From: a virus
Direction: 5' to 3' (one strand)
Length of the DNA: 45,908 bases
Virus record (IMG/VR): IMGVR_UViG_3300017643_000011
Location: 1 to 45,908 of that record
The notes beneath the pieces are model-generated. The model searched no databases. It was not told the DNA's origin and saw only the letters and a program-made list of their open reading frames with translations. Numbering within the stretch: the first letter of the stretch is position 1; each line of letters starts with the position of its first letter. This document shows positions 4,146 to 30,316 of the stretch, piece after piece. Made by a program: the position numbers and the translations under genes.

Positions 4146-5840
4146 TCAGAAGGGGCGGCGCACGGCCTGCACCTTGGCCTTGCGCTTGCGCGACGCGAAC
4201 TCGGACAGCATCGACAGGGCGTCCGGCGCGTCATCGTGGCGGTTCTTGCCCTGGAGGGCGTAGCTCGTGAGCTGGGACAGGAACCGCGAGTAGTCGGACC
4301 CCGGTTTGACCTCGGACTCGTCGAGGAACAGGCAATGCTCCATAATCCAGGGGGAGGCGGCCAGTATGCGCGTCTCCTTGTTGCTGCTCGTGTACTTGGT
4401 GGTGATGGCGGTCTGGCCCTCCCGCGCGACGAGCATGTTCGACACCTCACGGGCCGTCGCGCCGCCCGCCGAGTTGCTCTCGAACCTGGCCTGCTGCACG
4501 CCGTTGCGCATGAGGCACTGGACCAGCCTCTCGCGCACCAGCTCGGGGGCCGCATCGTCACACACCACATCGCCTATGTACCAGTCCTGGCCGTACACGT
4601 AGGCCACGGGCATCACGCAGAAGTCGATGCCCCGGTCCTTGGTGTCTGCCACGGCCACCACCGCGTCGGGTGGGTCGGAGGGCATGGACAGGAACCGCCT
4701 CAACTGGTCGGGCGGGAAGAGCTGTCCCTGACGGACGTACGGCGCACCCTCGTACTTGGCGCACCACGTCGCATCATCGGTCATCCTCTTCATATCAATA
4801 TAGTAACTTGTCGAGAACCCCAGCCCGTACTGGTACTCGAAGTTGCTCTCACCCGTCGACGGGTCGAGCGCGGGTATCACCAGCTCGCGGTAGCCCGGCT
4901 CCCCACGGTGCATGTCGAGCATCCGTCCCTCGGGGTCGGCCACGTCCCAGCGGGTGCCGACCATGAGTATCTTGGTCCCGTCCTTGCGGCGGTCGTAGGC
5001 CTGGTTGACGAACGCGCCCCACTTCCGGTCGAGGCGGGCGGGACTCATGGCCTCCTCCAGGTCCTCCACGAGGTCATCGGCATAGAGCCAGCCGTGCTCG
5101 CCGACCTCGACCGCGCCCGTGAGCGTGCCCTCGATGGAACGACACGTGAGGGTGGGGAACCGCCGCCTCGCGCGAAGGGCTATCGCCTCGTCCTCCGAGG
5201 AGTCCCACACGTAGGGCGACTCGGGGAATATCTCGTGGTAGTTGTACCGCTCCTCGGTCATCATCGACTTCGACTCGCCGTAGAAGCCCTTGGTGAGCTT
5301 GTCGGAGTGGCCCGTCATGAGGTTGGCGTCGAGCGGGTGGCGGCCCATGTGCCAGTTGAGGCCCATGATGCAGGTGGTCGACTTGCCGACGCGGGGCGGG
5401 CAGGACACTATGAGCATCCGCTCGTTGGGGTCGTCCTCCAGCCGCTGTATCCCCTGGCAGAGCGGCATGAGCTGGCGTCGCCTCGGCAGCCAGAACCGCT
5501 GCTCGGGGGGACGGTCGAACTCCATGGCCTGCATGTAAGCGTCGAAGTCGTCGTGGGCGTCGACGATGAGCTGCCCGCGCAGCAGGTCGCCGAGCCGCTG
5601 CACGACCCCCGCGTCGCGGGTACCCGTTATGCCCCGTCCCAGGAGCCTGCGCAGCTCGGCCCCCGCCGCACGGTCGGTGCGCCCACGGGCGTCCCTCACC
5701 GACCTGAGCCATGAGCATGCGTCCTCCGCGACCGACACATCGCATGTGTCGTGCCCGTAGGCGTCGAGCACGCCCCTGGTCACCCTGTCCTGTTCCAGAA
5801 CATCCATGCCCCCGAGCGTCACATGGACGCCCGGGGGCAC
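4146..5840 (-). CDS. terL: terminase large subunit
   Basis: 564-aa ORF with Walker A-like 'SCPPRVGKST' in the N-terminal ATPase half, followed by a nuclease-sized C-terminal half. Sits immediately upstream of portal. Start is ambiguous (GTG 5840 or ATG 5807). Confidence 0.85.
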   Translation of the reverse strand: MPPGVHVTLGGMDVLEQDRVTRGVLDAYGHDTCDVSVAEDACSWLRSVRDARGRTDRAAGAELRRLLGRGITGTRDAGVVQRLGDLLRGQLIVDAHDDFDAYMQAMEFDRPPEQRFWLPRRRQLMPLCQGIQRLEDDPNERMLIVSCPPRVGKSTTCIMGLNWHMGRHPLDANLMTGHSDKLTKGFYGESKSMMTEERYNYHEIFPESPYVWDSSEDEAIALRARRRFPTLTCRSIEGTLTGAVEVGEHGWLYADDLVEDLEEAMSPARLDRKWGAFVNQAYDRRKDGTKILMVGTRWDVADPEGRMLDMHRGEPGYRELVIPALDPSTGESNFEYQYGLGFSTSYYIDMKRMTDDATWCAKYEGAPYVRQGQLFPPDQLRRFLSMPSDPPDAVVAVADTKDRGIDFCVMPVAYVYGQDWYIGDVVCDDAAPELVRERLVQCLMRNGVQQARFESNSAGGATAREVSNMLVAREGQTAITTKYTSSNKETRILAASPWIMEHCLFLDESEVKPGSDYSRFLSQLTSYALQGKNRHDDAPDALSMLSEFASRKRKAKVQAVRRPF

Positions 5841-5842
5841 GT

Positions 5843-5855
5843 GTATCGGTCTTAC
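5843..5855 (-). repeat. intergenic motif, copy 2 (GTATCGGTCTTAC)
   Basis: 13-nt match to the 17-mer at 4128/34064, located 3 nt upstream of the terL GTG. Confidence 0.6.
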
Positions 5856-5877
5856 TTGTTAGGTAGAACCATCCAGG

Positions 5878-6510
5878 CTATGCGAAGGTGAGCGAGTCGA
5901 GCAGGACCTGATAGGTCGCGTGAGTGAACGCCCCATCCTCGGCCGAGCCTATCACGGCCACGGTATATATTCCACCATCCTCGGGCGAGCCGAACGATAT
6001 GATATCGCCTTTCAGATGATAGCCACCCTTGATGTCGAAAGACCCGCTGTCGTGGAAGGCAGTACGCCCGGCGAACGTGACGGCCCCGCAGGGCGACGCC
6101 GGGTCGAGGTTGTCGGTCTCGTCCCACAGCGCGTCCGTGTCCGTCCCCGTGACGCTCTGCTCGTATGATTCCGCCGCGAGTTCGACATCGGCAGTATCCT
6201 CGGTGGCGATGAATGCCACTACGGCGATATACGTCTTGCTCCCCGAGCTTTGCATCTGGCACGACTGGTTCCCGCGATCGTTCGCCTTCCTCTTCTGGGT
6301 CCAGCCGTCAGGCACCTCGAACGTGACCTTGCCGACGGTAGCGGTCTTGGGGACCGGAGCCGGGGTCGGTTCCTCGCTCGTCTCGGTGCTCGTCGCCGCG
6401 TCCTGCGACGTCGATGCCGCCGGACTCGCGCAACCTCCCAGTGCCACTCCCAACGCCAACGCCACTCCCAGCACCGCAGCACCCATCGTCACGAATCGGT
6501 CCCGTCCCAT
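5878..6510 (-). CDS. secreted lipoprotein (moron; possible superinfection-exclusion factor)
   Basis: N-terminal signal peptide with lipobox 'GVALGGC', followed by a Ser/Thr/Pro-rich linker. An AT-rich patch and AAGGGG SD lie upstream at 6511-6553. Confidence 0.7.
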   Translation of the reverse strand: MGRDRFVTMGAAVLGVALALGVALGGCASPAASTSQDAATSTETSEEPTPAPVPKTATVGKVTFEVPDGWTQKRKANDRGNQSCQMQSSGSKTYIAVVAFIATEDTADVELAAESYEQSVTGTDTDALWDETDNLDPASPCGAVTFAGRTAFHDSGSFDIKGGYHLKGDIISFGSPEDGGIYTVAVIGSAEDGAFTHATYQVLLDSLTFA

Positions 6511-6553: not shown

Positions 6554-7177
6554 CTACAAGGAAGCGGGCCGGTCGGGTTCCACTTCCCGTCCCCAGGCCT
6601 CGGCGGGCACCGCCTTGTGTCGGTACCACGTGCTCCTGCCTATCCCCATGTCCGCGCACGCCTGCGCCACCGTCTCCTCCCCCCTGCCTATCCTGTCCTC
6701 GTGCCACGCCCTCGGGTGTCCATGGGACGTCGCCCTCGGCCTGCCCTCGCGCCAACCCGGGCGCTCCCGCGCCCTGCGCTTGCCCTCGGAGGTCCTCTCG
6801 GCGATCATGTCGCGCTCGAACTCGGCCACGGCGAGCATCACGTTGCGCAGCAGCCTCGACGCGGGGTCGCCCGCGAGCGTGCCCACGTTGAGCACCGTCA
6901 CCCTCACCCCGCGCCCGTCCATCTCGTCAAGCAGCGTGAGGCCGTCCGACAGCGAGCGCGCGAAGCGGTCCATCTTGGTCACCACCAGCTCGTCTCCCGA
7001 CGTGAGGCGTGCCATGAGGGCGTCGAGCGCGGGCCTGTGCTCCGAATGGCCGGTAAACGCCTCCCGCACGACCTCGGTGCACCCCTGCTCGCGCAAGGTG
7101 GCCTCCTGGGTGTCGAGAGACGTGCCGTCCGCCGCCTGCCCACGAGAACTGACACGGGCGTAGCCGTAACGGGTCAT
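6554..7177 (-). CDS. small serine recombinase (resolvase/invertase family)
   Basis: 'YGYARVSSRGQ' catalytic-Ser motif, 'VVTKMDRFARS', and a C-terminal HTH 'GIGRSTWYRH'. About 207 aa. ATGA overlap with the upstream ORF. Confidence 0.85.
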   Translation of the reverse strand: MTRYGYARVSSRGQAADGTSLDTQEATLREQGCTEVVREAFTGHSEHRPALDALMARLTSGDELVVTKMDRFARSLSDGLTLLDEMDGRGVRVTVLNVGTLAGDPASRLLRNVMLAVAEFERDMIAERTSEGKRRARERPGWREGRPRATSHGHPRAWHEDRIGRGEETVAQACADMGIGRSTWYRHKAVPAEAWGREVEPDRPASL

Positions 7178-7452
7178 CACCACACCCCCCGCTTCCGCCA
7201 ATCAATCTGCGGGTATCCCGGCGTGTCCCAGTCGGTCGTACCACGACATTTGGTCCAACCGCCGGCGGGAGTCTGGCCGCACGAGGGGCACCAGACGCGG
7301 GCCTCGGTGAGAGGGTCATCGACCCCCTCGGACGATGCAGTGAGACGGCCGCCGCACACGAGGCATGGGTGGATTCCCTCGGGATGGGCGTTGAGCCACT
7401 GGGCGTAGGTCATACGGGACGGAAGGCCACCGTCAATCAGCGTCAGCGACAT
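7177..7452 (-). CDS. zinc-ribbon protein (CxxC...CxxC), unknown function
   Basis: 'CLVCGG...WCPSCG'. Translationally coupled (ATGA) to the recombinase and overlaps the HTH gene end by 20 nt. Confidence 0.5.
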   Translation of the reverse strand: MSLTLIDGGLPSRMTYAQWLNAHPEGIHPCLVCGGRLTASSEGVDDPLTEARVWCPSCGQTPAGGWTKCRGTTDWDTPGYPQIDWRKRGVW

Positions 7453-7702
7453 CGTTCCCTGCCTCCCCGCAACCAATCGGGTCGACGCGCCTGGCCTCGG
7501 GCGGGAGCTTCGTCCCCCGAGGGACCGCCACGAGGTCGTAGCCAAGCACGTCGAGTATCTGCCATAGGGTCTTGGCGGTCATGTTGCCACGACGAAGTGC
7601 GACCGCGATGGACGGAGGCTTCACGCCGAGCCGCTCCGCCACATCCTTCTGTGAACTGCCACGTGAGGCTATCAGCTCACGAATGGCGTCCGAAATGTAC
7701 AT
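7433..7702 (-). CDS. XRE/Cro-type HTH transcriptional regulator
   Basis: 'SQKDVAERLGVKPPSIAVALRRGN' HTH. SD GAGAGGA upstream of ATG 7702 (alternative ATG at 7708). Divergent from the plus-strand operon. Confidence 0.7.
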   Translation of the reverse strand: MYISDAIRELIASRGSSQKDVAERLGVKPPSIAVALRRGNMTAKTLWQILDVLGYDLVAVPRGTKLPPEARRVDPIGCGEAGNDVADAD

Positions 7703-7741
7703 ACGCATGTCCTCTCTGTGATTACATCGGCGTTTACGTTT

Positions 7742-8045
7742 GTCTAACACAATAATGCATAGTCATACGTCTAACAAGTCCTTTTTAGATTTTTTTCTCC
7801 TCGCGGTACTCAACAGGCGGATTCTACCTAGGATCAATCCCTGCCCGGTACCCTTGCCATAACGTTATTGCTGGTACACGTGTAGTGCGTCTCGTTACAC
7901 GCCTATGCATCTATTGCGTAGCTCAAAACTGTTGAGTATAGAGACACTCATATTGGTTAGACGTTCGTTTATGTAGATAATGTGAACCACTGGACACAAA
8001 TTAGACGCTTGCTTAATCTATAGTCATGTTAAACGAACGTCTAAC
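7742..8045. promoter_or_regulatory. divergent promoter/operator region with five ACGTCTAAC-type sites
   Basis: GTCTAAC at 7742 and 7767-7775. Exact 15-bp inverted pair GTTAGACGTTCGTTT (7956-7970) and AAACGAACGTCTAAC (8031-8045). TTAGACG at 8001. The surrounding sequence is AT-rich. Confidence 0.55.
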
Positions 8046-8058
8046 GAACGGAGTCACG

Positions 8059-8397
8059 ATGCATACAGTCCAAGCTTACATAGGCCACAACGTGCACGAC
8101 GTACCGACTCTCTCAACGCGCGAGGTATGCGACGCGGTAGAGAAGGGACTGAACGCCCGGCCTATCCTCGCGCCGGCCTACACGACCCAGGACGCGCGGG
8201 GCATGTGGCAGGGCGTGGCCGAGGACACGACGATCGTGACGCTTGCACTACTTGAGACACGCGACACACTGAACGCGGCCCTCGACCTCGTGCAAGACGT
8301 GTGCGACGCGTGCGAGCAAGACGCGGTGCTGGTAGTGGTAGACGGCTCCTCACAGCTCATAGAGGCCACACGCAAGCCCATGAAGAAAGCACTCTAG
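8059..8397 (+). CDS. hypothetical protein (island 2, gene 1)
   Basis: ATG 8059 preceded by GGAG. The upstream ATG at 8026 lies inside an operator repeat. No family recognised. Confidence 0.55.
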   Translation: MHTVQAYIGHNVHDVPTLSTREVCDAVEKGLNARPILAPAYTTQDARGMWQGVAEDTTIVTLALLETRDTLNAALDLVQDVCDACEQDAVLVVVDGSSQLIEATRKPMKKAL

Positions 8398-8412
8398 AGA
8401 GAGAAGGACATC

Positions 8413-8805
8413 ATGTACGACTATGAAGCAAGCCGCCCGTACTGTAGCGAACAATTGACCGGACGCGCCGCAACCCGATTCTATCGCGCAACAAGTGCTT
8501 ACGACCTTGCCACGAGGATCAAGGAAACGCCGCTGGAGTCCGACGTAAGAGCCGCGCGCGACTTGCTTGACCGTGTGACGCGCTACGCGCTTGCAGAAGG
8601 CCGTGCGTGCGAGGTCGACAACGACTCTAGCCGATACGACGAAGCACGAAGCAAGCACACGGAAGACCTGCTAGCAAAACGCCGCGCGCGTCTTGTGGCA
8701 GAACTCACGGCGTACGGCGCAACGCTGGAAGACTACGGAGTCTATCCGTCAGTGATTGACGCCACGACGCATCAAGACTTGTATGCCATTCATTTCTACG
8801 ATTGA
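8413..8805 (+). CDS. hypothetical protein (island 2, gene 2)
   Basis: 130-aa ORF with SD GAGAGAAGGA upstream. No family recognised. Confidence 0.6.
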   Translation: MYDYEASRPYCSEQLTGRAATRFYRATSAYDLATRIKETPLESDVRAARDLLDRVTRYALAEGRACEVDNDSSRYDEARSKHTEDLLAKRRARLVAELTAYGATLEDYGVYPSVIDATTHQDLYAIHFYD

Positions 8806-8900
8806 TGCATTGTAGACGACTATGGAAGTTACGTTATTGATAGTTGGCTATCTATTGGGCGGATTGGGCATGTGGTGGAGCCTCAAGGGAGAGAAATAAG

Positions 8901-9578
8901 ATGTTCGATATCAACGCATCAAGTTTCAAGCCGATTAAGTCTGTGGCCGGACTTTGTAGTTGCGAGAACCGTCCGATATACGACACGATCGCGCTTCTCG
9001 TGCGCGACGGTTCGGCCATGTGGTGGGGCGGTAGTCCCTACATACAGGCGCGCGCCATTCTCACCGGCAAGCTGAAAGACGAACCGGACACGTTTCACAG
9101 GTACGACGCCAACACACTATTGTCAGTACTCAAGCCAAAGTCGCACATGACAATCACGGACGCCGGGGACATCGAGATTCGTACCGGCGCTAGCGTCGTG
9201 ACTATCCCCGACACGGCCACCACCGGAACAACGGGCCACGACTACCGGACCACTGACAAGGCCCTTGAGTTCTGGGGAACGAGTCGCGAGATTGACGGTG
9301 TGCCCGCCTATGACCCGAAGATTCTCGCCAAGGTCATGAAAGCACTCACTAGTGCCGGCGTGACGCGCACGTCGATTGATCTGATACATTCCCCAGCGCA
9401 CGTGTACGGAGAAGCGTATCGCGTGGGCGCGCGCTTGCAGATTCTCATGATGCCATGCCAAGCGCTTCCACTGACATATGAGGCCATGGGCCGCCTCATG
9501 TGCGACATCAAGGGCGACAGCAAGGGCATCACCGACTACGTGACGCGAGAGGATGATACGAAAAATGATAATTTCTGA
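8901..9578 (+). CDS. hypothetical protein, possibly sliding-clamp-like fold (island 2, gene 3)
   Basis: ATG 8901 after AAGGGAGAG. The sequence pattern (N-terminal 'F.I....F...I..V', 'RPIYDTIALLV', C-terminal 'LQILMMP') loosely recalls DnaN-type beta-clamp domains. Recall by eye only. Confidence 0.55.
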   Translation: MFDINASSFKPIKSVAGLCSCENRPIYDTIALLVRDGSAMWWGGSPYIQARAILTGKLKDEPDTFHRYDANTLLSVLKPKSHMTITDAGDIEIRTGASVVTIPDTATTGTTGHDYRTTDKALEFWGTSREIDGVPAYDPKILAKVMKALTSAGVTRTSIDLIHSPAHVYGEAYRVGARLQILMMPCQALPLTYEAMGRLMCDIKGDSKGITDYVTREDDTKNDNF

Positions 9579-9897
9579 CCCGTGGGGCATAGGCCGGACG
9601 CTTGAGGACAAAGAGACGGAAATCAAGGACCTAACCACGTACGACCTCGCACGTAAGTGTGGGCTACCGGACGACGCCGCCCGGTTCGTGGACGAATGGC
9701 TACCGGAGTATCGCGCGACTCTGACTTTGTACCTCGCCTATTGGCCCTACTCGTGGCTTACGATCGCAGTCATGGATGATAAAGAGTTGAACGATTGGCT
9801 TGCATGCTATCCAATTACGCGCGAAAAGTTCGAGGAAGAGCGCGGATCGATCTACGAGGACGCGAGCTTTATAGGCCATTTGGTGATAGGGAAATGA
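9553..9897 (+). CDS. hypothetical protein (island 2, gene 4)
   Basis: 114-aa ORF overlapping the previous gene by 26 nt. Alternative ATG at 9565. Confidence 0.5.
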   Translation: MIRKMIISDPWGIGRTLEDKETEIKDLTTYDLARKCGLPDDAARFVDEWLPEYRATLTLYLAYWPYSWLTIAVMDDKELNDWLACYPITREKFEEERGSIYEDASFIGHLVIGK

Positions 9898-9898
9898 C

Positions 9899-10237
9899 AT
9901 GAGAAGCGACTGGTACGAGGGATTTTCGATTGTTGACCCGGACAACGGGGAACAGGTAAGCATGTACAGGGTCTACGAGCGCGACGAACCTATTGGCATC
10001 CGACGCCACGGACACACAAAATGGTATCGCACAACGTATTCCAGAAAGTCACTTATCAAGGTGAACAAGACGTGCATATCGACCTGCTCACAATCCGAAT
10101 TATTTGAGTTTCTTTCCGACCTATGCACACCACGTGGCGCGTTCCGGTTCATCCGCGCGATATGCGAGCACACAAAGCCCACGCGTTGCCCGATCCTACC
10201 CGAATACCTTACAAACTACCCCGAACTTGGAGAATAA
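9899..10237 (+). CDS. hypothetical protein (island 2, gene 5)
   Basis: 112-aa ORF starting 1 nt after the previous stop. Confidence 0.55.
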   Translation: MRSDWYEGFSIVDPDNGEQVSMYRVYERDEPIGIRRHGHTKWYRTTYSRKSLIKVNKTCISTCSQSELFEFLSDLCTPRGAFRFIRAICEHTKPTRCPILPEYLTNYPELGE

Positions 10238-10238
10238 G

Positions 10239-10457
10239 ATGTCTAAGAACGTAATGTCTCCCGACAAGCTACCCGCCTATTTCAATAGCACCGACGGCTG
10301 GTACAAGGACAAGCGCGCCTACGCCTACACGCTCTGTGACCGACTCACCGACGCACAGAAGACGAAACTGCTCGAGAACGAGGACGTACGTCTCATAACC
10401 TGCCACCATCGCTACGCGCCGGAACTGGTATATGATGTCGTTGTCGTTCTCCATTAA
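10239..10457 (+). CDS. hypothetical protein (island 2, gene 6)
   Basis: ATG 10239 after GGAGAATAAG, 1 nt after the previous stop. 72 aa. Confidence 0.55.
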   Translation: MSKNVMSPDKLPAYFNSTDGWYKDKRAYAYTLCDRLTDAQKTKLLENEDVRLITCHHRYAPELVYDVVVVLH

Positions 10458-10487
10458 GATAGCCAAACGGACGAGGGAGAATTCATT

Positions 10488-10559
10488 ATGATTTACATTC
10501 TGATATCAATCCTGCTGTTTCCCCTTGCGGTCATTGTAGGTATCCTCAAGTCGCACTAG
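10488..10559 (+). CDS. possible 23-aa hydrophobic peptide (MIYILISILLFPLAVIVGILKSH)
   Basis: ATG preceded by GAGGGAGA. One predicted TM-length hydrophobic stretch. It is the last ORF before the terminator and too short to be certain. Confidence 0.3.
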   Translation: MIYILISILLFPLAVIVGILKSH

Positions 10560-10587
10560 CAAATAAGAAAGTTAACCACATACCGTA

Positions 10588-10627
10588 GAAAAAGACCCGC
10601 TAGGCAAACGCCCGGCGGGTCTTTTCG
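10588..10627 (+). terminator. rho-independent terminator closing the plus-strand operon (bidirectional shape)
   Basis: AAAAAGACCCGC...GCGGGTCTTTTCG: GC stem flanked by an A-run and a T-run. Confidence 0.6.
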
Positions 10628-10826
10628 TGTGAAAATGGCCCTCGTTGATCCACGGAGGGCCGTTTTCGGGCCGTTCTAAGGCATTCTAAGCCCTCGGGAG
10701 TGCCATTATGGACAATCCCACCACATAGGCCCATACGTGGCGTGAAAATGGCCTCAGAACGTCACAAAGTGGCATCCTCATGCCTCACGGATAGCCCACG
10801 AGACCACCAGACGCCACGAGGGCCAC

Positions 10827-10862
10827 GAAAAAGCCCCTCGCGACCATGAGGCCACGAGGGGC
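10827..10862 (-). terminator. rho-independent terminator directly after terS
   Basis: Minus strand reads GCCCCTCG-(14 nt)-CGAGGGGC followed by TTTTTC, beginning 10 nt after the terS stop. Confidence 0.55.
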
Positions 10863-10872
10863 GAGGGCTACG

Positions 10873-11922
10873 CTAGCGGGCCTTGCGCGGTCCCGTCTTG
10901 AGGGCGGGCACGCCCTTGTTCGTCATGCGCACGGTACCGTCTGGTAGCACGTGCGGCTCGTGGCCCATGAGGGCCTCAAGGTCCGCCAACTGCGAGGGCG
11001 TGGCGGCGCGTCCCGCGTCCGGGAGTATGCGCGCCACGGCCGCACGGACGGCCGCGTTGGCGGCGCGCTCCCGGTTGGTCCACGACATCGCCGCCCATTC
11101 CTCGGTCGGGACGTCCAGGGGGCGGCCCGTCCTCGCGTCTATCCCGAAGCGTTCCGCGTATTCGCCGGCCGTTCCCACCGTCTTCCGGTGGGATCGCCGC
11201 GTATTCGCCGGCTTTCGGGCGGTATTCGCCGGCTTCCGGGCGGTATTCGCCGGGTCTTTTCCGGTATTCGCCGGATATTCGCCGGGCTTTTCCCCACGTT
11301 CGCCCGTATTTGCCAGGCCCGGGGCGGTATTCGCCGGCATCGGGGCCTCGTATTCGCCGGCCTCGTATTCGCCGGCCTCCTCGGCGGGGACCTCCACGCG
11401 GACGTCCTCGGCAGGGAGGGCCGACGCGTACCTCGCCATGATCTGCGCGGGCGAGCGGGACTCGGACCCCTGTATCTGCACGTTGATGTTCTCGGTCGTG
11501 TCCTTGTAGCCGAAGTTGTTCTTGCCTAGGAATATGCCCGTGACCGGGTTGCGGAACTCGTCGTTGGCGAAGGCGTACTCCCAGTAGGTTGACATAAGAT
11601 TGAGTGCGTTTTTGATGATAAGGCTGGACTCGGGCGTAAGCTGGGCGGCCCATGTGCCCGTGTTGTCCCCGTTGGTCCAGCGCATGAGGCCGTCCCTCGT
11701 CGTGTTCAGCGCCATGCAGAACCCGCTCAGCAGCGGCTTGCTCCCGTGCCTCTCGCACAGGTCGAGGTACCAGTCTATCCTCTCCCGCACCGCGTCGGCG
11801 TCACCCAGATCGACCCTCCTCAACCCCAACAGCTCTCGGCCCATCTGGATGCACTCGCTGTTCTGCTCCCTGCTCATGGCCCTCGCGTTCGGCGGGTTCC
11901 CCTTCAGACTCCTCTCGCCCAT
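10873..11922 (-). CDS. terS: terminase small subunit with long repeat-containing C-terminal extension
   Basis: The N-terminal 170 aa show TerS (Terminase_2-type) features: 'KPLLSGFCMALNTTRDGLMRW' HTH and 'GIFLGKNNFGYKDTTE'. The C-terminal part contains the GEY/PANT repeats. Confidence 0.8.
   Translation of the reverse strand: MGERSLKGNPPNARAMSREQNSECIQMGRELLGLRRVDLGDADAVRERIDWYLDLCERHGSKPLLSGFCMALNTTRDGLMRWTNGDNTGTWAAQLTPESSLIIKNALNLMSTYWEYAFANDEFRNPVTGIFLGKNNFGYKDTTENINVQIQGSESRSPAQIMARYASALPAEDVRVEVPAEEAGEYEAGEYEAPMPANTAPGLANTGERGEKPGEYPANTGKDPANTARKPANTARKPANTRRSHRKTVGTAGEYAERFGIDARTGRPLDVPTEEWAAMSWTNRERAANAAVRAAVARILPDAGRAATPSQLADLEALMGHEPHVLPDGTVRMTNKGVPALKTGPRKAR
11169..11386. repeat. 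array of about 10 copies of GTATTCGCCGG inside terS, mostly 21-bp phased
   Basis: Copies start at 11169, 11212, 11233, 11254, 11275, 11287 (variant), 11317 (variant), 11338, 11361 and 11376. Confidence 0.9.
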
Positions 11923-14640: not shown

Positions 14641-14988
14641 TCAGCACAGCCCGTACCTCTTGACCTGCTCCTTCGCTTTATCAAAGTCGCAATTTGTCTC
14701 AACCAGCGCCCGCTTGCATTCGACCATGGGCGCATCCGTCGCGTCGCGGAGGCGTCGCACCATGTCGGCCGTGACGCGCATCAACGCCCCCTTGTTCCAT
14801 GCGTCGATGGCTGCGATTGCTCCGGGGTTCTCGATGGTCCAGTTCAACGAGTCACTCTTTGTGATCGGGCCGCGCGCCCCGCACCTCGGGCAGCAGACGT
14901 AGAACCTCAGCGGTTCCCCGAAGATGCCTCGGACGACCACCTCGTCGTTGCCGCAGAAGCGGCACGCCCCTCGTTCCGTCGCGGGCAC
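14641..14988 (-). CDS. Lar-like zinc-ribbon (restriction alleviation family) fused to EF-Ts N-terminal (UBA-like) domain
   Basis: GTG 14988 after GGAGG. 'CRFCGN...CCPRCGARG...AIDAWNKG' resembles the Lar family. The C-terminal 'TADMVRRLRDATDAPMVECKRALVETNCDFDKAKEQVKRYG' aligns by eye with E. coli EF-Ts residues about 4-45. Confidence 0.6.
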   Translation of the reverse strand: MPATERGACRFCGNDEVVVRGIFGEPLRFYVCCPRCGARGPITKSDSLNWTIENPGAIAAIDAWNKGALMRVTADMVRRLRDATDAPMVECKRALVETNCDFDKAKEQVKRYGLC

Positions 14989-19509: not shown

Positions 19510-20558
19510 TACTGGTTGTCCTCTCGGTTGGAAGTGGTGAGTCGGATGGACTCGCTCGTCTTGCAGAACTCCTGGTAGGTCCTGGGGTCGGCCTTCTTGA
19601 AGGCTGTGCCGTCGAACCTCGTGCTCTCTGTGCGGGAGAGCCTCCACACGAGTGTCTCCCCCGCGTACTCGGCCTTGGTATCACCCTCACCCATGCTCTC
19701 GGCGAGGGCGGTCTTGATGGCGTCCTTGAGGCCCGCGAGCCGCTCCTCCTTGGGGGCAAGCTCGGCCCCGAGGGCCTCGGCCTCGGCAACGAGTCCGGCT
19801 ATCCCCGTGTCGGCGGACGGGATGGCCGTGCGGAGGGCGTCGAGGTACTCCTTGTCGGTGCGCTCGTCGTAGTCGGGTGATTTGCCCGCCATGACGTGCT
19901 CGAACCACCAATCGCGTACCTGACCCATCCATATCTCGAAGTCCGGATACCTCTCGGCCATGGAGAACTCGACGGTGATGGTGTTGTCGCTTGAAATCGC
20001 CACGTCGGCCGGGTGCTCGTAGTCCTCGTCCTTGAGGAACGTGCAGACCATCACCACGTCATCGACGTGGAGGAGCGCGGCGTAGAGCGCGGCCTGCTCG
20101 GCGTAGTACTCGGGAACGCCGTCCTCCCAGTCCTCGGCGCGCTTCGTGGTCTTGCACTCGATGACCGTCTGGGGCACCCTGTCCTCGTCCACCACGAGGT
20201 AGTCCCACATGCCCCCGAAGATCGCATCGTCGGGGAAGAAGTCCCACCCGGCGTTGCGCGCCGGGTCGGGGCCGCCGTAGACGTCCTCGGGACGCAGGAG
20301 CGAGGACCCCAGGCCCATCGTCCCCTGCAACCAGTCGGCCTGGTGAGGCTCGATGGCCCGTCCCGCGACCGTGTAGATGGTGTCCTCGAATGGCGGCTTG
20401 TAGGTCCTCGTGACCTCGCACCACGCCTGGAAGGGGCTGCTCCAGCGGTTCAGGCCCCGCACCGCGGCGAACCGTGTGCCCGTGAGCTTGAGGGGTCGCC
20501 TCGGCTGCGCGACCTCGAGGTGCCGGTCGACCCATTTTCCCTTTGGCATACTACGCAT
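19509..20558 (-). CDS. YqaJ/lambda-Exo-like PD-(D/E)XK recombination exonuclease
   Basis: 'MWDYLVVDE...VIECKTTK' catalytic pattern. Adjacent to the Erf domain. Confidence 0.75.
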   Translation of the reverse strand: MRSMPKGKWVDRHLEVAQPRRPLKLTGTRFAAVRGLNRWSSPFQAWCEVTRTYKPPFEDTIYTVAGRAIEPHQADWLQGTMGLGSSLLRPEDVYGGPDPARNAGWDFFPDDAIFGGMWDYLVVDEDRVPQTVIECKTTKRAEDWEDGVPEYYAEQAALYAALLHVDDVVMVCTFLKDEDYEHPADVAISSDNTITVEFSMAERYPDFEIWMGQVRDWWFEHVMAGKSPDYDERTDKEYLDALRTAIPSADTGIAGLVAEAEALGAELAPKEERLAGLKDAIKTALAESMGEGDTKAEYAGETLVWRLSRTESTRFDGTAFKKADPRTYQEFCKTSESIRLTTSNREDNQ

Positions 20559-21414
20559 CCATCCTCTCGGTGACGGCCGCGATAAGCGTCTCGACGGTCT
20601 TGGTCGTGCCCGTGGTGAACTTCTCGGTCTTGTCCATGCAGAGCTTGGCGAGCTTGGTGGCCTTCTCGTCGTCGGGCTTGGCCTTGTGGAGCGCGGCCAC
20701 GTTCCTCTTGAGGCTGTTCAGGAGGAGCTTCGGGGCGGCGTTCCCCTCCGTCTGGGCGTCGGCGCTCGCCTTACGCTCGGTGGGCGTCGCGGGGGCCTTG
20801 TGGGACCTCTGGGCCGCGACGGGTGCCGCGACCGCCTTGGCGGGCGTCTCGCCCGTGCCCTGCCCCGCCTTCGGGTTGCCGATGTTGGAATCGATGGCGT
20901 CGGCCTCCACGAGGTCGAGGGCGATCATCCAGAAGTAGCGACGGTAGTAGGTGATGCTCGACCCCGCCGCCTGGCAGGGGTTCGTGGCGTTCTTGCCCGC
21001 GTTCGAGACGATGACGTCCATCGGGTCGTACGCCCCTTGGAACGCGATCCTCTCGGACGGCTCGTCCGCGTTCACGACCTCGAAGCCGTAGTTCTTCGGG
21101 GATTCCTTCGAGTAGGTGTATCCGAGGTTGGTGACGACCAGCACGAGGCCGAGGTCCTGGAACGTCTCCTCGGCCACGGGAACGATGTCCTCGAGCGAGT
21201 AGTAGGTGAACTCCAGGAACATGTTCTTGCCCGTCTTCTTGATGCCCTTGTGGAGCACCGTCGTTCGTGCGAGGGCGAGCTTCTGGTACACGTTGAGGTC
21301 ATGGGGGTTGGTGACGGCCTCGGTCTCGACCTTCTTGGTCGCTGTTCGCTTGCGTGGGGCGGTCTTGGGGGCCGTCTCGTTCTCTGTGGTTTCATTCTTG
21401 ATTGTCTCGGTCAT
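20551..21414 (-). CDS. possible independently translated Erf-family annealase (internal start)
   Basis: In-frame ATG at 21414 preceded by GAAGGAGAAGGAC (strong SD), exactly at the polymerase/Erf boundary. Confidence 0.4.
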   Translation of the reverse strand: MTETIKNETTENETAPKTAPRKRTATKKVETEAVTNPHDLNVYQKLALARTTVLHKGIKKTGKNMFLEFTYYSLEDIVPVAEETFQDLGLVLVVTNLGYTYSKESPKNYGFEVVNADEPSERIAFQGAYDPMDVIVSNAGKNATNPCQAAGSSITYYRRYFWMIALDLVEADAIDSNIGNPKAGQGTGETPAKAVAAPVAAQRSHKAPATPTERKASADAQTEGNAAPKLLLNSLKRNVAALHKAKPDDEKATKLAKLCMDKTEKFTTGTTKTVETLIAAVTERMDA

Positions 21415-23250
21415 GTCCTTCTCCTTCGCTGGCAGAAACTCGGCCACCCGTCTTTCGGCGAGTGCCACGTACCATGCCTTGTCGATGTCTTTGATGTCGG
21501 GGTTCTTCTCGTTGGCTACGAGACAGTGCTCGGGGAGGCTCGCTATCTTGGCGACTCCGCCCGTCTCGGCCTTGACCTTGTAGAGCGTGCCGAGGCCGTC
21601 ATACGTGGTGGCGAACACCCGGTTGCACTGTTGTCTGTCAACCTCGTCGTACACGTCCCGTCCCACCAGCTGGTAGACGCGGCTGTACTTGTGCGAGGCC
21701 TTGGCCGTGATCTGGTAGTCGGTGGGGTCGTCGTCCGCCGCCACGGTCTCGGAGGGCGGCGTCCCGTCGAGGATGGCGTGATGTATCGCCTCGGCGACCA
21801 CCCTGGCGTCGTTGGAGACGCCCCAGCCCCCGCCGCTCTTGACGCCACGAGCGAGGGTGCCGCCCTTGGTCTTGTCATGACCGTCGGTGAAGCGGGCGGC
21901 GTAGTTGTTCACGTCGCGCTGGGCCACCTTGGACAAATCGTCGCGTTCGAGCACGAGACCCGTCGCGTCCATCCACTCGCGGATGATGTCGTTCGTGGCC
22001 TCGGCGTCGGTCTTGGCTACGCGGAACATGATGCCGTCCGTGTTGAGCTGGATCAATTCGAGGCTCGGGGTGTCTCGCACCAGTCGGCAGGCGAGTCCCA
22101 GCATCACGACCTGGCCGCTCACGCACACCGAGCGGGCCATGCGAGGGTCGTACAACTTCGAGAACCTCTGGCGCATGACGCCGTATGTCGTGTTGAGCAC
22201 CAGCTTGAGGGCGTCGCTCAGGGCCTTGTCACCCGTGCGCTTGGCTTCGAGCCTTGCGTGGTAGGTGTCCTCGTAGCGTTTTGGTTCGGGGCAGTGACGG
22301 CTCATGAGGCCGTACCCGATGATCAGGGACGGGTACAGGCTTGCCACGTCCCAGTTGGCTATCACGTGCTCCGAGTCTGTCTCCCACATGGACCTCGGCA
22401 CCGCGCCGTGGATTCCCCCGAACGCAAGGGTCACAGGACAGCCGCCCACGTTCAGGTCGAGACTTGACGAGAACAGCTCGTCGTATGCCACGTTCGGGTC
22501 CTTGCCACGTCCGAAGAACGCCGCAGCAGCATCAGGTATCGGGAACGAGTCGAGCAGGGGCCACGTGTAGTCGCGTTCGTCGGCCTCTCGCTCCTCCGTC
22601 GTGCCCTCCGCGTCGGCGCGCAGGTACTCGGCGGTGAGCCTCCCGTTGGTCATGCCCAGGGCCTTCCACCCCTCCAGCCCCGCCATCGTGCCCAGCCGCG
22701 TCTTGGTCTCCAGGTAGTCCTTGCGCAGCACCGCGAGCCTGGCCGTGGACTCCACGTCATAGGCGCAGTAGCGCAGGACCTCCGCCATCTCGGCGTCCGT
22801 GAGGGCGCGGTCGATGTCGAACGGCACCGTGGACTCCCGGATGGGCCAGCCCATCTGCGACTCCACCGACTTGAGGCTCGTGCCCATCATGGTGTCGTCC
22901 ATGAGGTCGGTGTCGGGGTACCAGTACCTCTGGCCCCCGAACCCGGGCCAGTCCCAGTAGTTGTTCCCGTCCTTGATGATGAAGTCGTTCAGGTCGTGGG
23001 CCTCCTCGGGCGACGCCCCGAGGCAGAGGGCCGAGACGATGCCCCGGTCGTAGTGCTTGGAGTTGAACCCTGCTAGTGTATGGTCCTGTTTGATGACTCC
23101 CATGAAGTCGAGTAGGTCTTGGTTCTGGCCCGTCTGGAAGCCCCACGTGCGAGGCTCGCCCTCGGGTGGTGCGACCTCCCGGAAGCACACGCACCAGTCG
23201 TGCCGAAAGCACTCGCAGTCGTAGGCGACGAGGCCCCCTAGTCCTCCCAT
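20551..23250 (-). CDS. family B DNA polymerase fused in frame to an Erf-family single-strand annealing protein
   Basis: Exo motifs 'AYDCE', 'NSKHYD', 'YCAYDVEST'. Pol motifs A 'DVASLYPSLI', B 'KLVLNTTYG', C 'QLNTDGIMF'. The C-terminal ~290 aa show an Erf signature ('LNVYQKL...FTYYSLEDIVP...QAAGSSITYYRRY'). No stop codon separates the two parts. Confidence 0.8.
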   Translation of the reverse strand: MGGLGGLVAYDCECFRHDWCVCFREVAPPEGEPRTWGFQTGQNQDLLDFMGVIKQDHTLAGFNSKHYDRGIVSALCLGASPEEAHDLNDFIIKDGNNYWDWPGFGGQRYWYPDTDLMDDTMMGTSLKSVESQMGWPIRESTVPFDIDRALTDAEMAEVLRYCAYDVESTARLAVLRKDYLETKTRLGTMAGLEGWKALGMTNGRLTAEYLRADAEGTTEEREADERDYTWPLLDSFPIPDAAAAFFGRGKDPNVAYDELFSSSLDLNVGGCPVTLAFGGIHGAVPRSMWETDSEHVIANWDVASLYPSLIIGYGLMSRHCPEPKRYEDTYHARLEAKRTGDKALSDALKLVLNTTYGVMRQRFSKLYDPRMARSVCVSGQVVMLGLACRLVRDTPSLELIQLNTDGIMFRVAKTDAEATNDIIREWMDATGLVLERDDLSKVAQRDVNNYAARFTDGHDKTKGGTLARGVKSGGGWGVSNDARVVAEAIHHAILDGTPPSETVAADDDPTDYQITAKASHKYSRVYQLVGRDVYDEVDRQQCNRVFATTYDGLGTLYKVKAETGGVAKIASLPEHCLVANEKNPDIKDIDKAWYVALAERRVAEFLPAKEKDMTETIKNETTENETAPKTAPRKRTATKKVETEAVTNPHDLNVYQKLALARTTVLHKGIKKTGKNMFLEFTYYSLEDIVPVAEETFQDLGLVLVVTNLGYTYSKESPKNYGFEVVNADEPSERIAFQGAYDPMDVIVSNAGKNATNPCQAAGSSITYYRRYFWMIALDLVEADAIDSNIGNPKAGQGTGETPAKAVAAPVAAQRSHKAPATPTERKASADAQTEGNAAPKLLLNSLKRNVAALHKAKPDDEKATKLAKLCMDKTEKFTTGTTKTVETLIAAVTERMDA

Positions 23251-23459
23251 AGGACCGCCGCCCCGCAGCACTCGCCGCCGAGTTCCGTGAGGCCCATCGT
23301 GGCACCGAAGGCACCGTCGCACATCCCGAGGTCGGAGACTATCGTCCGGGCGGCGTCGGCCCCCACGTGGTCCGCCAGAAGGCGCTCGTCCTCGGTGCCG
23401 AACGGCACGCAGTGGTTGCAGTCCCCGCAGCAGCCAGGCTGCCGCTTCATACGTCTCAT
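23238..23459 (-). CDS. Cys-rich small protein
   Basis: ATGA overlap with the SNF2 stop. 'CCGDCNHC...C...CC'. 73 aa. Confidence 0.5.
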   Translation of the reverse strand: MRRMKRQPGCCGDCNHCVPFGTEDERLLADHVGADAARTIVSDLGMCDGAFGATMGLTELGGECCGAAVLWED

Positions 23460-25782: not shown

Positions 25783-25933
25783 CTTCGCCTCCTTTCACCA
25801 TTCTCATAATATCATCTAAATAGTATCACGCAAGTATTTTTTTTCTTTGTAAATATCGGCTACGCGATATTGTTTTTTTGGTACTAGGTATATAGTGTGT
25901 AGCTACAGCAAGATATGGGGCAAGGAGGCCGTT
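25783..25933. promoter_or_regulatory. immunity switch intergenic region with palindromic operator candidates
   Basis: AT-rich 151 bp. Palindrome AATATCG-6 nt-CGATATT at 25852-25871. Further ATATC/GATAT half-sites near 25808 and 25911. Confidence 0.5.
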
Positions 25934-26170
25934 ATGTCCTATCACTTCAATACTGAGCTGTTTGGTCGCAGGATGCGGGAGGCTCGTCTCAACGCCCATC
26001 TCACACAGGACGAGGCGTCTGCGAAGTCTGGCATATCACAGAGCAACATCAGCACCTATGAGCGCGGTGCGCTTCCCATCATCGATACTGCCATGGCTCT
26101 TGCCGATCTCTATGGGGTTTCAGTGAGTTGGCTCGCTGGCATGACCGATGATCCCAAAGGGACGCGGTAG
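25934..26170 (+). CDS. CI-like XRE HTH repressor (short, no peptidase domain)
   Basis: ATG 25934 after AAGGAGG. 'LTQDEASAKSGISQSNISTYERGA'. Confidence 0.8.
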   Translation: MSYHFNTELFGRRMREARLNAHLTQDEASAKSGISQSNISTYERGALPIIDTAMALADLYGVSVSWLAGMTDDPKGTR

Positions 26171-26304
26171 GCGGGGCGTTCGAGTATGTGCGTGGGCTGT
26201 CCATGTATAGAACACTAGTTCTAATGCCGGACAGAAATGTTTCAGACAGGGGAAGTCTCGGTCAGCGGTATAAGACTCCTCGCGATGCACGCATCTGAGA
26301 TTTT

Positions 26305-26337
26305 TGCTGCCAAATCTGCTGCCAAGTTGCTGCCAAA
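26305..26337 (+). repeat. three direct TGCTGCCAA(A) repeats (candidate integrase arm-type sites, arm 1)
   Basis: Copies at 26305, 26317 and 26328. The same 9-mer is repeated three times at 26533-26565. Confidence 0.7.
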
Positions 26338-26342
26338 CAAAA

Positions 26343-26372
26343 GAGGTCACGGGAAACATAGCCCGTGACCTC
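26343..26372 (-). terminator. hairpin terminator following the tRNA 3' fragment
   Basis: 11-bp perfect stem GAGGTCACGGG/CCCGTGACCTC, followed on the minus strand by TTTTGTTT. Confidence 0.55.
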
Positions 26373-26380
26373 GTCATTTA

Positions 26381-26430
26381 TGGTGGGCGTTGCAAGATTT
26401 GAACTTGCGACCTCTTCCGTGTCAGGGAAG
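26381..26430 (-). other. attP core: 3' portion of a long-variable-arm tRNA (variable arm, T-arm, acceptor 3' strand, CCA)
   Basis: Minus strand reads CTTCCCTGACACGGAAG-AGGTC-GCAAG-TTCAAAT-CTTGC-AACGCCC-A-CCA. No matching 5' acceptor strand or D-arm lies upstream. Confidence 0.65.
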
Positions 26431-26532
26431 TTAGGGTATAGTCGATTATCTGCCGACACTGCATCTACCTGCTAATATGTTGAGCACGAAAGAGGTCATA
26501 GGTGCTAGAATCGTCTAAAAACGGAGATGATT

Positions 26533-26565
26533 TGCTGCCAAATCTGCTGCCAAATCTGCTGCCAA
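26533..26565 (+). repeat. three direct TGCTGCCAA(A) repeats (arm 2), abutting the int ribosome-binding site
   Basis: Copies at 26533, 26545 and 26557 with 12-bp spacing. The int ATG is at 26586. Confidence 0.7.
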
Positions 26566-26585
26566 AAAAGGAGGACATATAAAAT

Positions 26586-29047: not shown

Positions 29048-29264
29048 AGCGTCTGCCGATAAACGGGATTATGTCTTGTCGGTTTGCGGGAAATCCCGTG
29101 TATGTTTGTCCGAATCTCCAGCGAACAGGCCTTAGAACGCCTTACAGCAAGCCATCTACCTGGCATTTTGCCATATAGTTTGAGAGTACTTCATTACATA
29201 GAAACAGTGTCGATATTCGGTATTATTTTGAAAGAACATGTCTCGTTAAAACAGACGGGTGAAT

Positions 29265-29960: not shown

Positions 29961-30316
29961 CGCGCGACACACGAGAATGTTGCTACGCCACTCTCGCGTC
30001 GAACGATTACGGCAACGGCCCCAGCCGGTCCCTTCGGTTCGGTGCTCACAACCCAAGACGTGAACAGAGTCCGGCTACGGTCATAATCTCACGCCCGGCA
30101 TGGACTTCGAGCATGATCCAGGTTGCAGGCGTCACGGTTGCTATGTAATTGGTCATGAACAGGACGAATTGGATGCACGAGAGGAATTAGCTGAGATACA
30201 ACAGGGCCTGGTTTCAATTGCTGCTGTTTATGCTGGCAGTGATAGTGATATGATTTCAAACAGATGTGGGTACCAGTGCAGATTGGAGAACATCTGTGGA
30301 CCAGAACACAGCCACT

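Follow-up and report, generated by a model that had tools for sequence, protein, structure and literature searches.

A candidate repressor-controlled accessory operon with exchangeable cargo between the TerS-like and TerL genes of a temperate siphophage

We have analysed an operon of small genes at positions 8059-10559 of the IMG/VR virus record IMGVR_UViG_3300017643_000011, whose 45,908 nucleotides (below, the window) are a rotated copy of a JGI contig and make up a complete temperate siphophage. The operon contains eight open reading frames (ORFs) on the + strand, i.e., g1-g6, the 23-codon g7, and a hydrophobic 25-codon mini-ORF (Table 1). They are tightly packed: gaps of 15 nt and about 16 nt follow g1 and g2, g3 and g4 overlap by 14 nt, 1 nt separates g4 from g5 and g5 from g6, and 30 nt lie between g6 and g7. 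Shine-Dalgarno sequences of the GGAG type precede g1, g2, g3, g4, g5 (a weaker one), g6, and g7, and a weak one precedes the mini-ORF. The six larger genes were recovered identically by independent gene calls on four public contigs. An initial annotation, made from the letters of the window, had described the packed + strand ORFs with their Shine-Dalgarno sequences, the 23-codon hydrophobic ORF, and a terminator, and the coordinates, gene calls, and hairpin fold agree with it. The seven ORFs that it named are all present, while the mini-ORF had been overlooked.

The main terminator hairpin of the operon, the inverted repeat I22, has an A-run and a U-run on its flanks and is therefore potentially bidirectional. 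A second hairpin follows, and a convergent terminator closes the - strand early/replication operon after the gene of the TerS-like protein. In base composition the operon departs clearly from its surroundings, with a GC content of 0.51-0.59 over positions 8001-10500 against 0.68-0.71 in the flanks, and a GC content at third codon positions (GC3) of 0.58-0.76 against 0.86-0.94 in core genes (terminase, primase, resolvase). The gene of the divergent helix-turn-helix (HTH) protein also has a low GC3 (0.71). This bears out the lower GC noted in the initial annotation, whose statement that the operon runs opposite to the rest of the phage is true of the neighbouring genes but only partly right, since the lysogeny module is on the + strand as well. 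Among 50,697 GenBank phages we have found no match to the operon DNA or to 25 kb of the genome, and no tblastn match to the six operon proteins at E <= 0.1. No RNA family was found in the window with Rfam.

Table 1 Features of the operon, its control region, its neighbourhood, and the lysogeny module (window positions)
Feature	Position	Strand	Remarks
g1	8059-8397	+	112 aa
g2	8413-8805	+	130 aa
Hydrophobic mini-ORF MEVTLLIVGYLLGGLGMWWSLKGEK	8822-8899	+	25 codons; fills the g2-g3 gap; stop 1 nt ahead of the g3 start
g3	8901-9578	+	225 aa
g4	9565-9897	+	110 aa, acidic
g5	9899-10237	+	112 aa, five cysteines
g6	10239-10457	+	72 aa
g7	10488-10559	+	23 aa, single-pass hydrophobic peptide
Main operon terminator hairpin	10590-10625	+	-25.8 kcal/mol, z = -5.4, then UUUU
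Second terminator hairpin	10637-10661	+	-18.4 kcal/mol, z = -2.4
Convergent terminator	10833-10862	-	13-bp stem, -29.3 kcal/mol, z = -6.0
Three 16-bp imperfect palindromes	7957-7972, 8001-8016, 8029-8044		TTAGACGTTCGTTTAA-type; from repeat search
Two operator-like sites at the HTH gene	7733-7747, 7760-7775		half-sites ACGTCTAAC / GTCTAAC
HTH_3 (Cro/CI-type) regulator	7433-7702	-	89 aa; PF01381 E 2.1e-6, PHROG repressor families
CxxC...CxxC protein (Cys-rich)	7177-7452	-	91 aa; between HTH and resolvase genes; gene-called on contigs L001-L003
Small serine recombinase (resolvase/invertase type)	6554-7177	-	207 aa; PF00239 Resolvase E 3.8e-34, phrog_125 'DNA invertase' E 1.2e-45
TerS-like protein	10873-11922	-	GP3_package N-terminal domain, PF16677 E 2.2e-4; right border of the slot
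CI-like HTH	25895-26170	+	lysogeny module
Tyrosine integrase	26586-27689	+	lysogeny module
AbiH	27928-28875	+	PF14253 E 3e-43
Two ORFs without family	29259-29852, 30266-31120	+	40-47 % GC

We have examined ten contexts in related phages through exact-protein look-ups (L098, L102, L103/104, L105/106, L107, L108, L109, L194, L195, and L196). Six of them (L103/104, L105/106, L107, L108, L194, and L195) share one arrangement: portal and TerL genes lead through further genes to the resolvase and HTH genes, an opposite-strand operon with a g2 homologue follows, and then come TerS and primase. The same layout is seen in L102, where Pfam recognises neither of the two proteins, of 215 and 98 aa, encoded at the positions of resolvase and HTH. 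L098, L109, and L196 are layout variants in which g2 holds its position; in L109 the g2 operon has no HTH or resolvase partner at all, and L196 has a larger recombinase nearby and no HTH-position gene. Homologues of the TerS-like protein flank the slot in the relatives. A Resolvase-domain gene follows the HTH-position gene in L098, L024, L103-L108, L194, and L195. Downstream of the HTH gene, the serine recombinase gene is a conserved partner; it stands outside the + strand operon.

Only g2 of the six larger genes recurs elsewhere, and always with other partners. Its companions vary by phage and include unknown proteins of 60-100 aa and of 176-185 aa, GP88-domain proteins, an LPD15 protein with an FtsK-like ATPase, and AntA. 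As the partners of g2 differ between phages, this is a mosaic cargo slot rather than a fixed six-gene system, and the proposal of an undescribed six-gene system in the initial annotation is not upheld: co-occurrence of the six genes either fails or cannot be judged. The further phage L024 (IMGVR_UViG_3300044856_000276) has the same frame of TerS on one side and HTH, resolvase, and TerL on the other, with different opposite-strand cargo and no g2. Overall, we observe a conserved slot with one anchor gene, g2, and exchangeable cargo. By eye, the cargo of L024 (1406-3683) includes a zinc-ribbon-rich, amidoligase-like protein of 475 aa and a protein of 267 aa like class-II glutamine amidotransferases.

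The g2 family is large. A profile search has yielded at least 136 clusters at E <= 1e-3, with proteins of 130-147 aa on phage-sized contigs, and none of these clusters has a Pfam domain or a name. The protein g2 itself matches the family profile with E 4e-53. Across 62 members there are 17 invariant columns, including the motifs L-D-x-V-x-R and Y-G-x-Y-P, and 21 of the 62 have weak matches to phrog_2602, whose function is unknown. The AlphaFold2 (AF2) model of g2 has a predicted local distance difference test score (pLDDT) of 92.3 and consists of three long helices and a C-terminal beta-hairpin. No Foldseek match with E < 0.1 was found for it in PDB or BFVD, the best being uncharacterised phage proteins with template modelling scores of 0.52-0.56, and no PDB sequence matches g2. 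Judged from this model, g2 may be the core protein of the slot with a new fold, which appears undescribed. The g2-homologue loci have 48-54 % GC against 65 % here, and presumably belong to phages of different hosts; this conservation across phages of differing GC suggests a phage-centred rather than a host-adaptive role. Scans of IMG/VR, GTDB genomes, and JGI metagenomes for homologues of g2 and g3 have given a single weak IMG/VR locus (L193, 28 % identity) that was confirmed by tblastn.

The HTH gene is divergent from the operon, and a control region of 356 bp (7703-8058) lies between them. It contains five copies of a 16-bp imperfect palindrome of the TTAGACGTTCGTTTAA type, two on the HTH side and three on the g1 side. 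The two operator-like sites on the HTH side overlap a candidate HTH promoter (TTGTTA-17-TATTGT, 7777-7749, - strand), and the palindromes on the g1 side overlap two candidate + strand promoters, TTGGTT-17-GATAAT (7953-7981) and TGGACA-17-TAATCT (7991-8019). All three exact copies of ACGTCTAAC in the window sit in this intergenic region, and a window-wide scan with the consensus has confined the operator matches to it, save one weak match with 4 mismatches at 25561. The plan is the same in the relatives, where the HTH promoter has 2 sites and the operon promoter 3-4, and the palindromes are phage-specific: AATAGAAAAAxCTATT in L103 and L195, CAAGAAAACxCTTGA in L105, ACAACGAAAACGTGGT in L194, and ACTAGATATATTTAGTG in L108. 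In L103 the operator sites bracket a consensus promoter, TTGACA-16/17-TATAAT.

The HTH proteins of the relatives are homologous and stand at the same position. L103 and L195, which share their operator, have an identical recognition helix, QSNITGLLNN, and other operators go with other helices. This co-variation is the main argument for taking the HTH protein as the operator-binding regulator, and the small HTH protein probably binds the 16-bp palindromes. The dedicated repressor-type gene and operators proposed in the initial annotation have therefore been strengthened by the comparison with relatives.

In the relatives, the centre of the control region (equivalent to window 7780-7900) has two features, a conserved T-run, CTTTTTTATTTTTTC, and a GC-rich core of 100-200 nt (70-85 % GC in phages of 48-54 % GC). 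The core includes a motif of the CTAACCCCGCCC type and could form a hairpin around an AT centre. The region was delimited at 5535-5625 in L103, 5680-5850 in L105, and 5680-5830 in L195, with equivalents in L107, L108, L194, and L102, and between L103 and L107 the core is better conserved than the operators are. The adjacent serine recombinase could use this core as its crossover (res-like) site; alternatively, the core could be a cos/pac site or an origin. We have also considered an invertible segment of the Gin/Cin/Hin type driven by the adjacent recombinase and have rejected it: convincing flanking inverted repeats are absent, the best one (22 nt, 77 % complementarity) lying inside the resolvase gene, and the orientation is constant in all contigs and relatives examined. 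For the 91-aa CxxC...CxxC protein encoded between the HTH and resolvase genes, no family was found.

One protein of the operon gives a lead to function. Residues 39-108 of g1 align, below the Pfam gathering cut-off, to positions 30-101 of the 133 in the S-AdoMet_lyase model (PF23780), a family of S-adenosylmethionine (SAM) lyases. Among the PHROG families, g1 matches phrog_16022 better (E 1.9e-5) than phrog_2226 (E 0.0045); according to the RefSeq annotation of phage T3, the latter is the T3 SAMase family, mis-named 'methyltransferase'. Starting from a weak tblastn match of g1 to gp2 of the Synechococcus phage S-CBP1 (E 0.6), we arrived at a small family of cyanophage proteins, and profile comparisons have validated the relationship: S-CBP1 gp2 itself matches DUF3574 (E 5e-9) and S-AdoMet_lyase (E 5e-4), hhalign relates g1 to the cyanophage DUF3574-like family with a probability of 91 % (E 9e-7), and the joint profile of g1 and the cyanophage proteins is related to six T3-type SAMases with a probability of 86 % (E 5e-6). 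A BLASTP comparison of g1 with the T3 SAMase gives E 0.003 on the motif EQDxVLV.

Among 177,635 PDB sequences, the best match of g1 is the phage SAM lyase Svi3-3 (6zm9, E 0.014), and the alignment of profile positions 5-96 of g1 with chain residues 14-118 covers the full length. The segment I8-G-H-N-V12 of g1 aligns with the active-site loop V17-G-L-N-V21 of Svi3-3, G48-x-W50 falls on G56-x-Y58, E55 on E69, and Q87-D88 on Q104-E105. Guo et al. 2021 (PMC7877911) name Gly56, Glu69, and Gln104 (Svi3-3 numbering) as the sole residues that active SAM lyases strictly conserve. Their equivalents G48, E55, and Q87 are invariant in g1 and its five cyanophage homologues, and the counterparts are invariant in the six T3-type enzymes. 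On the strength of these profile, PDB-sequence, and active-site alignments, we place g1 with moderate to good confidence as a putative remote, short member of the SAM-lyase (PII-like) superfamily, near the DUF3574-like cyanophage proteins. The substrate of g1 may be SAM or SAM-AMP (PMC12255297).

In the T7-like genome of S-CBP1, the gene of gp2 (L198 406-687) comes second among the annotated genes and lies at the far left end, which in T3 is the place of the SAMase gene. The short cyanophage proteins in general (93-98 aa, L198-L202) match both DUF3574 and the SAM-lyase hidden Markov model, and they have the active-site motifs of the latter. As they match this model with its motifs, DUF3574-like phage proteins may be unrecognised minimal SAM lyases.

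The remaining larger genes have no such kin. For g3-g6 no informative match was found in Pfam, PHROG, NCBIfam, PADLOC, or PDB. The clusters to which g1-g6 belong have 1-3 sequences each, from a few near-identical contigs, and g1 and g3-g6 are known only in near-identical copies of one phage lineage. A search of 5.8 billion clusters with g3 and an exhaustive HMMER scan over 1.84 billion representatives have returned g3 itself and one other match, a spurious one to a Calx-beta/RTX repeat protein. The faint clamp-like pattern read into g3 by the initial annotation has found no counterpart among families, PDB entries, or homologues: we tested g3 as a sliding clamp (DnaN/PCNA/gp45), and no clamp family matched at E <= 1 in Pfam, PHROG, and NCBIfam, and no PDB sequence at E <= 10. 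Its single-sequence AF2 model has a mean pLDDT of 31.2 and no confident residue, with strands and helices in alternating order. The structure prediction and Foldseek comparison that had been proposed as a check have thus yielded a confident model without structural match for g2, and for g3 a model of pLDDT 31. With hhalign, g3 is not related to the 176-185-aa proteins that follow a micro-ORF in L103, L107, and L109, and g5 and g6 have no relation to the recurring 67-70-aa 'DINGN' proteins of the relatives. In PADLOC-DB v2, g1-g4 and g6 have no match, and g5 matches Dsr1 marginally and in part (E 0.015, 11 bits, 65 of 1227 positions).

The downstream end of the operon has been exchanged by recombination. 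In L003, a variant contig of the same phage lineage, positions 5217-5860 (window 10239-10872) form a sharp recombination patch with a divergence of 14-19 % (17-19 % for the patch over g6-g7), while both flanks are 98-100 % identical. The patch takes in g6, g7, and the spacer between the terminators. In g6 there are 29 substitutions and 9 gap columns at the 3' end, i.e., 38 differing alignment columns, with 7 amino-acid changes, and the main terminator has kept its outer stem and altered its inner one. The 14 nucleotide differences in g7 lead to a single, conservative amino-acid change (I4V), while the spacers on either side are unalignable or have indels. For this reason g7 is truly coding, and it is under purifying selection.

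The peptide of g7 has a mean Kyte-Doolittle hydropathy of 3.04, and its Shine-Dalgarno sequence, GAGGGAG, is strong. The mini-ORF is likely coding. Hydrophobic micro-ORFs recur in the operons of relatives, with 29 codons in L103 and L107, 33 in L194, and 35 in L195, and in L103 and L107 the micro-ORF stands directly upstream of a larger gene, like the mini-ORF and g3 here. The view of the initial annotation that this is a horizontally acquired accessory operon with its own repressor stands, given the deviant composition, the slot with exchangeable cargo, and the patch in L003.

As to the phage as a whole, it has an SPP1-type portal, a Gp13-like capsid protein, a TerL nuclease domain of the T7 type, and an endolysin, and for replication and recombination a D5 primase-helicase, SNF2, ERF, and YqaJ. 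The - strand order is replication genes, the TerS-like gene with its terminator, then, beyond the opposite-strand operon, the genes of the HTH protein, the 91-aa Cys-rich protein, the resolvase, a lipoprotein, TerL, and portal. The lysogeny module extends over about 25.9-31.2 kb, with the primary CI/Cro/integrase region at 25.5-27.7 kb. AbiH and the two low-GC ORFs in it look like a prophage-borne defence island, far more AT-rich than the operon. An integrated copy of this phage is present in an ENA contig of 254 kb (ERZ2606006 NODE_113, L111 1-9500), where host genes (GH1, phosphotransferase system EIIBC, an RpiR-type regulator, and IS21 IstB) abut the integrase and replace the CI/Cro side, so that attP must lie between the CI and integrase genes (window 26170-26586). 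The GH1 protein is 81-82 % identical to those of Collinsella tanakaei and C. stercoris, and the host is a Collinsella-like gut bacterium, an actinobacterium.

Several neighbouring genes have features of their own. The TerS-like protein has a long low-complexity tail with tandem GEYEAGEYEA and PANTARKPANTARKPANT repeats; its L003 allele is 5 aa shorter, and the homologues of the relatives have only 166-204 aa. The lipoprotein (5878-6510, - strand, between resolvase and TerL) has a signal peptide followed by Cys and weak matches to DcrB, LpqN, and a domain associated with the type VII secretion system. In relatives this position is taken by PH_gly_zipper, Bro-N, or YjcQ, and looks like a second variable cargo site beyond the resolvase. 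The ERF protein (20551-23322, - strand, 899-923 aa) has its ERF domain only near the C-terminus, and the N-terminal ~670 aa belong to no family. A gene of the early operon (14641-14988, - strand) weakly matches Lar_restr_allev, a restriction alleviation family that is also present in the relatives L105 and L106, so it seems that anti-restriction functions of this phage group also occur outside the + strand operon.

Based on the above analyses, we favour the reading that the operon is a repressor-gated, early counter-defence or host-takeover cassette in a conserved slot, expressed in a burst and then repressed, and we give it a probability of about 45 %. Two face-to-face promoters would share the control region, with the HTH protein binding two palindromes at its own promoter and three at that of the operon. 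When the genome enters a naive cell without HTH protein, host RNA polymerase would give a burst of operon expression; as HTH protein builds up, the operon would be shut off, and it would stay silent in the lysogen. The strong convergent terminators would insulate it from neighbouring transcription. The cargo would target the host at an early stage of infection: g1, as a predicted lyase of SAM or a SAM derivative, would blunt SAM-dependent restriction, bacteriophage exclusion (BREX), or SAM-AMP signalling, g2 would be the conserved core protein of the slot with a new fold, and g3-g6 and the two membrane micro-peptides would be lineage-specific add-ons. Five of the six proteins are lineage-restricted and a recombination patch lies over g6-g7, which is a signature of an arms race. 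Of the defence or counter-defence role proposed initially, the superfamily assignment of g1 is the one lead that supports it, and the six proteins have no meaningful PADLOC match. The proposal of expression from the prophage or very early is likewise kept in its second half: an early burst is favoured, while prophage expression is less likely because, by the layout of the operators, the operon should be repressed as long as there is HTH protein, and because AbiH, the evident prophage-expressed defence gene, sits in a separate lysogeny module.

A number of points weigh against this reading. The Pfam match of g1 (E 0.0016, 18.9 bits) does not reach the gathering cut-off of 28 bits, and Tyr58 of Svi3-3 is replaced in g1 by another aromatic residue, Trp50, its neighbour Glu105 being Asp88; Tyr58 makes a cation-pi contact with the sulfonium with Glu105 as its partner, and Y58F loses only fivefold activity (PMC7877911). 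For g2-g6 there is no match to an anti-defence or other characterised family in Pfam, PHROG, NCBIfam, and PADLOC, and the conserved g2 could serve a phage-internal function instead of acting on the host. The promoter hexamers in the window are weak (8/12 matches), a standard promoter scan has detected none in the HTH-g1 intergenic region, and the timing of expression is deduced solely from the arrangement of promoters and operators. Other DNA would reach the cell before the operon if packaging began near terS and the pac end were the last to enter. The palindromes could instead be bound by the adjacent serine recombinase, as resolvase represses at the res site of Tn3, though with 16 bp they are a better fit for an HTH dimer.

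The operon could also be read as a moron expressed from the prophage for lysogenic conversion or superinfection exclusion, whose micro-peptides and unknown proteins protect or modify the lysogen while the HTH protein only tunes their level. Its own promoter region, strong terminators, and GC below that of the core genes are classic moron anatomy, two hydrophobic single-pass peptides are encoded, a lipoprotein gene (5878-6510) lies nearby on the other strand, and the phage is temperate and found integrated. We nevertheless consider this unlikely. With three operators over the operon promoter against two at the HTH promoter, tight repression is predicted whenever HTH protein is made; defence cargo expressed in the lysogen is already present beside the integrase (AbiH and the low-GC ORFs), and a SAM-degrading enzyme should hardly be a constitutive product of a lysogen. 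PADLOC models do not match, and the conservation of g2 over phages of 48-54 % and 65 % GC suggests a phage-centred role. The operon may also be taken as a phage-internal accessory module for replication, recombination, or packaging, with g3 as a clamp-like protein or g2 as a partner of terminase or resolvase. The slot between TerS and TerL beside a serine recombinase, with g2 conserved there, would suit it, as would the earlier clamp-like impression of g3 and the alternating strands and helices of its low-confidence AF2 model. Yet this model (pLDDT 31) is unusable, and g3 matches no clamp family in Pfam, PHROG, or NCBIfam and has no homologue, although one would expect homologues of a core replication factor. 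The operon runs against its neighbours, terminators insulate it, and its composition is foreign; the full replication module (primase-helicase, SNF2, ERF, YqaJ) is elsewhere, and the partners of g2 vary freely between phages. We regard it as very improbable.

A secondary immunity region like immI of phage P22 is unlikelier still than the moron. Here the HTH protein would be a maintenance repressor like Mnt, g2 a candidate antirepressor against the primary CI or the repressors of resident prophages, and the rest passengers. The divergent repressor and operon with overlapping operators, amid packaging and late genes and far from the primary CI/Cro/integrase region (25.5-27.7 kb), would fit, and so would g2 as the sole conserved gene of the operon. 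In L196, an AntA/ORF6C gene lies on the same strand 1.4 kb upstream of the g2-like gene, with a - strand gene between them, and in L107 a Bro-N gene adjoins the resolvase gene. But g2 has no match to the Ant, AntA, Bro, KilAC, or ORF6 families or to a solved structure, and no Ant, AntA, Bro, or KilAC family was found among any protein of the window in Pfam and PHROG. The g2 operon of L109 has no HTH or resolvase, an Arc-like second repressor is absent from the operon here, and g1 is left unexplained. What probability remains is left to readings that we have not considered.

A bolder form of the counter-defence cassette reading is in our view less likely than not. By it, uncultured gut siphophages would widely carry an undescribed locus for anti-defence or host takeover, namely the HTH-gated operon that g2 anchors between terS and terL. 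Here g2 would be a new-fold effector with a conserved host target, its lineage-specific partners (g3-g6 and the two micro-peptides) novel inhibitors of host immune systems, and short DUF3574-like proteins such as g1 a new minimal class of lyases of SAM or SAM derivatives.

In comparison with known systems, g1 resembles the product of T3 gene 0.3 and Svi3-3, a SAM lyase of an environmental phage. The enzymes of this family, to which phage SAM-AMP lyases also belong, are ferredoxin-like trimers of the PII type with active sites where the subunits meet, and SAM lyases split SAM into MTA and homoserine lactone. The protein g1 aligns over the full length to Svi3-3 and over the catalytic core to the T3-type enzymes, and keeps the three strict residues, the acidic neighbour (Glu105/D88), and the N-terminal GxN loop; its gene comes first in a promoter-proximal unit, as gene 0.3 does. 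However, it has 112 aa against 146-152 aa and is nearer to the DUF3574-like cyanophage proteins, and its phage is a temperate siphophage with an actinobacterial host, in which a dedicated repressor stands over the gene. The acr-aca loci likewise have small, fast-evolving, mostly ORFan genes, variable cargo with one conserved gene, and a promoter overlapped by palindromic operators of a small HTH protein, a layout for early burst and shut-off. At the level of sequence and comparison, the linkage of a small HTH gene to cargo and the palindromes over the cargo promoter are found here, too. In contrast to acr-aca, the HTH gene is divergent and not co-transcribed at the operon end, heading a unit that runs into the serine recombinase gene, and instead of the HTH gene it is g2, inside the operon, that forms the anchor. 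Searches of Pfam, PHROG, NCBIfam, and PADLOC have given no match to a known Acr or Aca family.

With P22 immI (mnt / arc-ant) the operon shares a divergent repressor and shared operators in the late/packaging region away from the primary immunity, as well as the predicted transient expression and silence in the lysogen. It differs in that there is no homology to Ant, Arc, or Mnt, the regulator is HTH_3 and not ribbon-helix-helix, and there are 8 ORFs including a SAM-lyase-like gene. A further comparison is with phage morons and accessory hot-spots, e.g., the lom and bor genes of lambda. They are likewise independent units with their own promoter and terminator, lower GC, and content that is mosaic among related phages, whereas the operon here has a dedicated repressor, a conserved multi-operator layout, and an anchor gene family across many phages. 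Finally, the tnpA-res-tnpR region of Tn3/gamma-delta also has a small serine recombinase gene beside a divergent control region rich in repeated palindromes, but here a separate HTH protein co-varies with the repeats, which have 16 bp against ~25-34 bp for the res subsites, and there is no transposase.

The kind of element is therefore already known, i.e., a regulated mosaic accessory/anti-defence cassette in a phage hot-spot. According to our literature search, the slot, the g2 family and its fold, the divergent HTH gene with 2 + 3-4 operators, and the link between DUF3574 and SAM lyases appear not to have been described. Mining uncultured gut phages is difficult, as their genes match no known families, and if our reading is true, it would give a positional rule for finding counter-defence genes: between TerS and HTH-resolvase-TerL, on the opposite strand, beside a g2 homologue. 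DUF3574-like phage proteins would become linked to the SAM-lyase superfamily, and SAM-targeting counter-defence would extend to enzymes of ~100 aa and to phages of Actinomycetota. The control region would be a compact natural gene switch whose operator sequence and recognition helix co-vary, and g2, with its confidently modelled, conserved fold and no structural relative, is a well-defined target for functional work. The operon is thus a plausible source of new counter-defence proteins.

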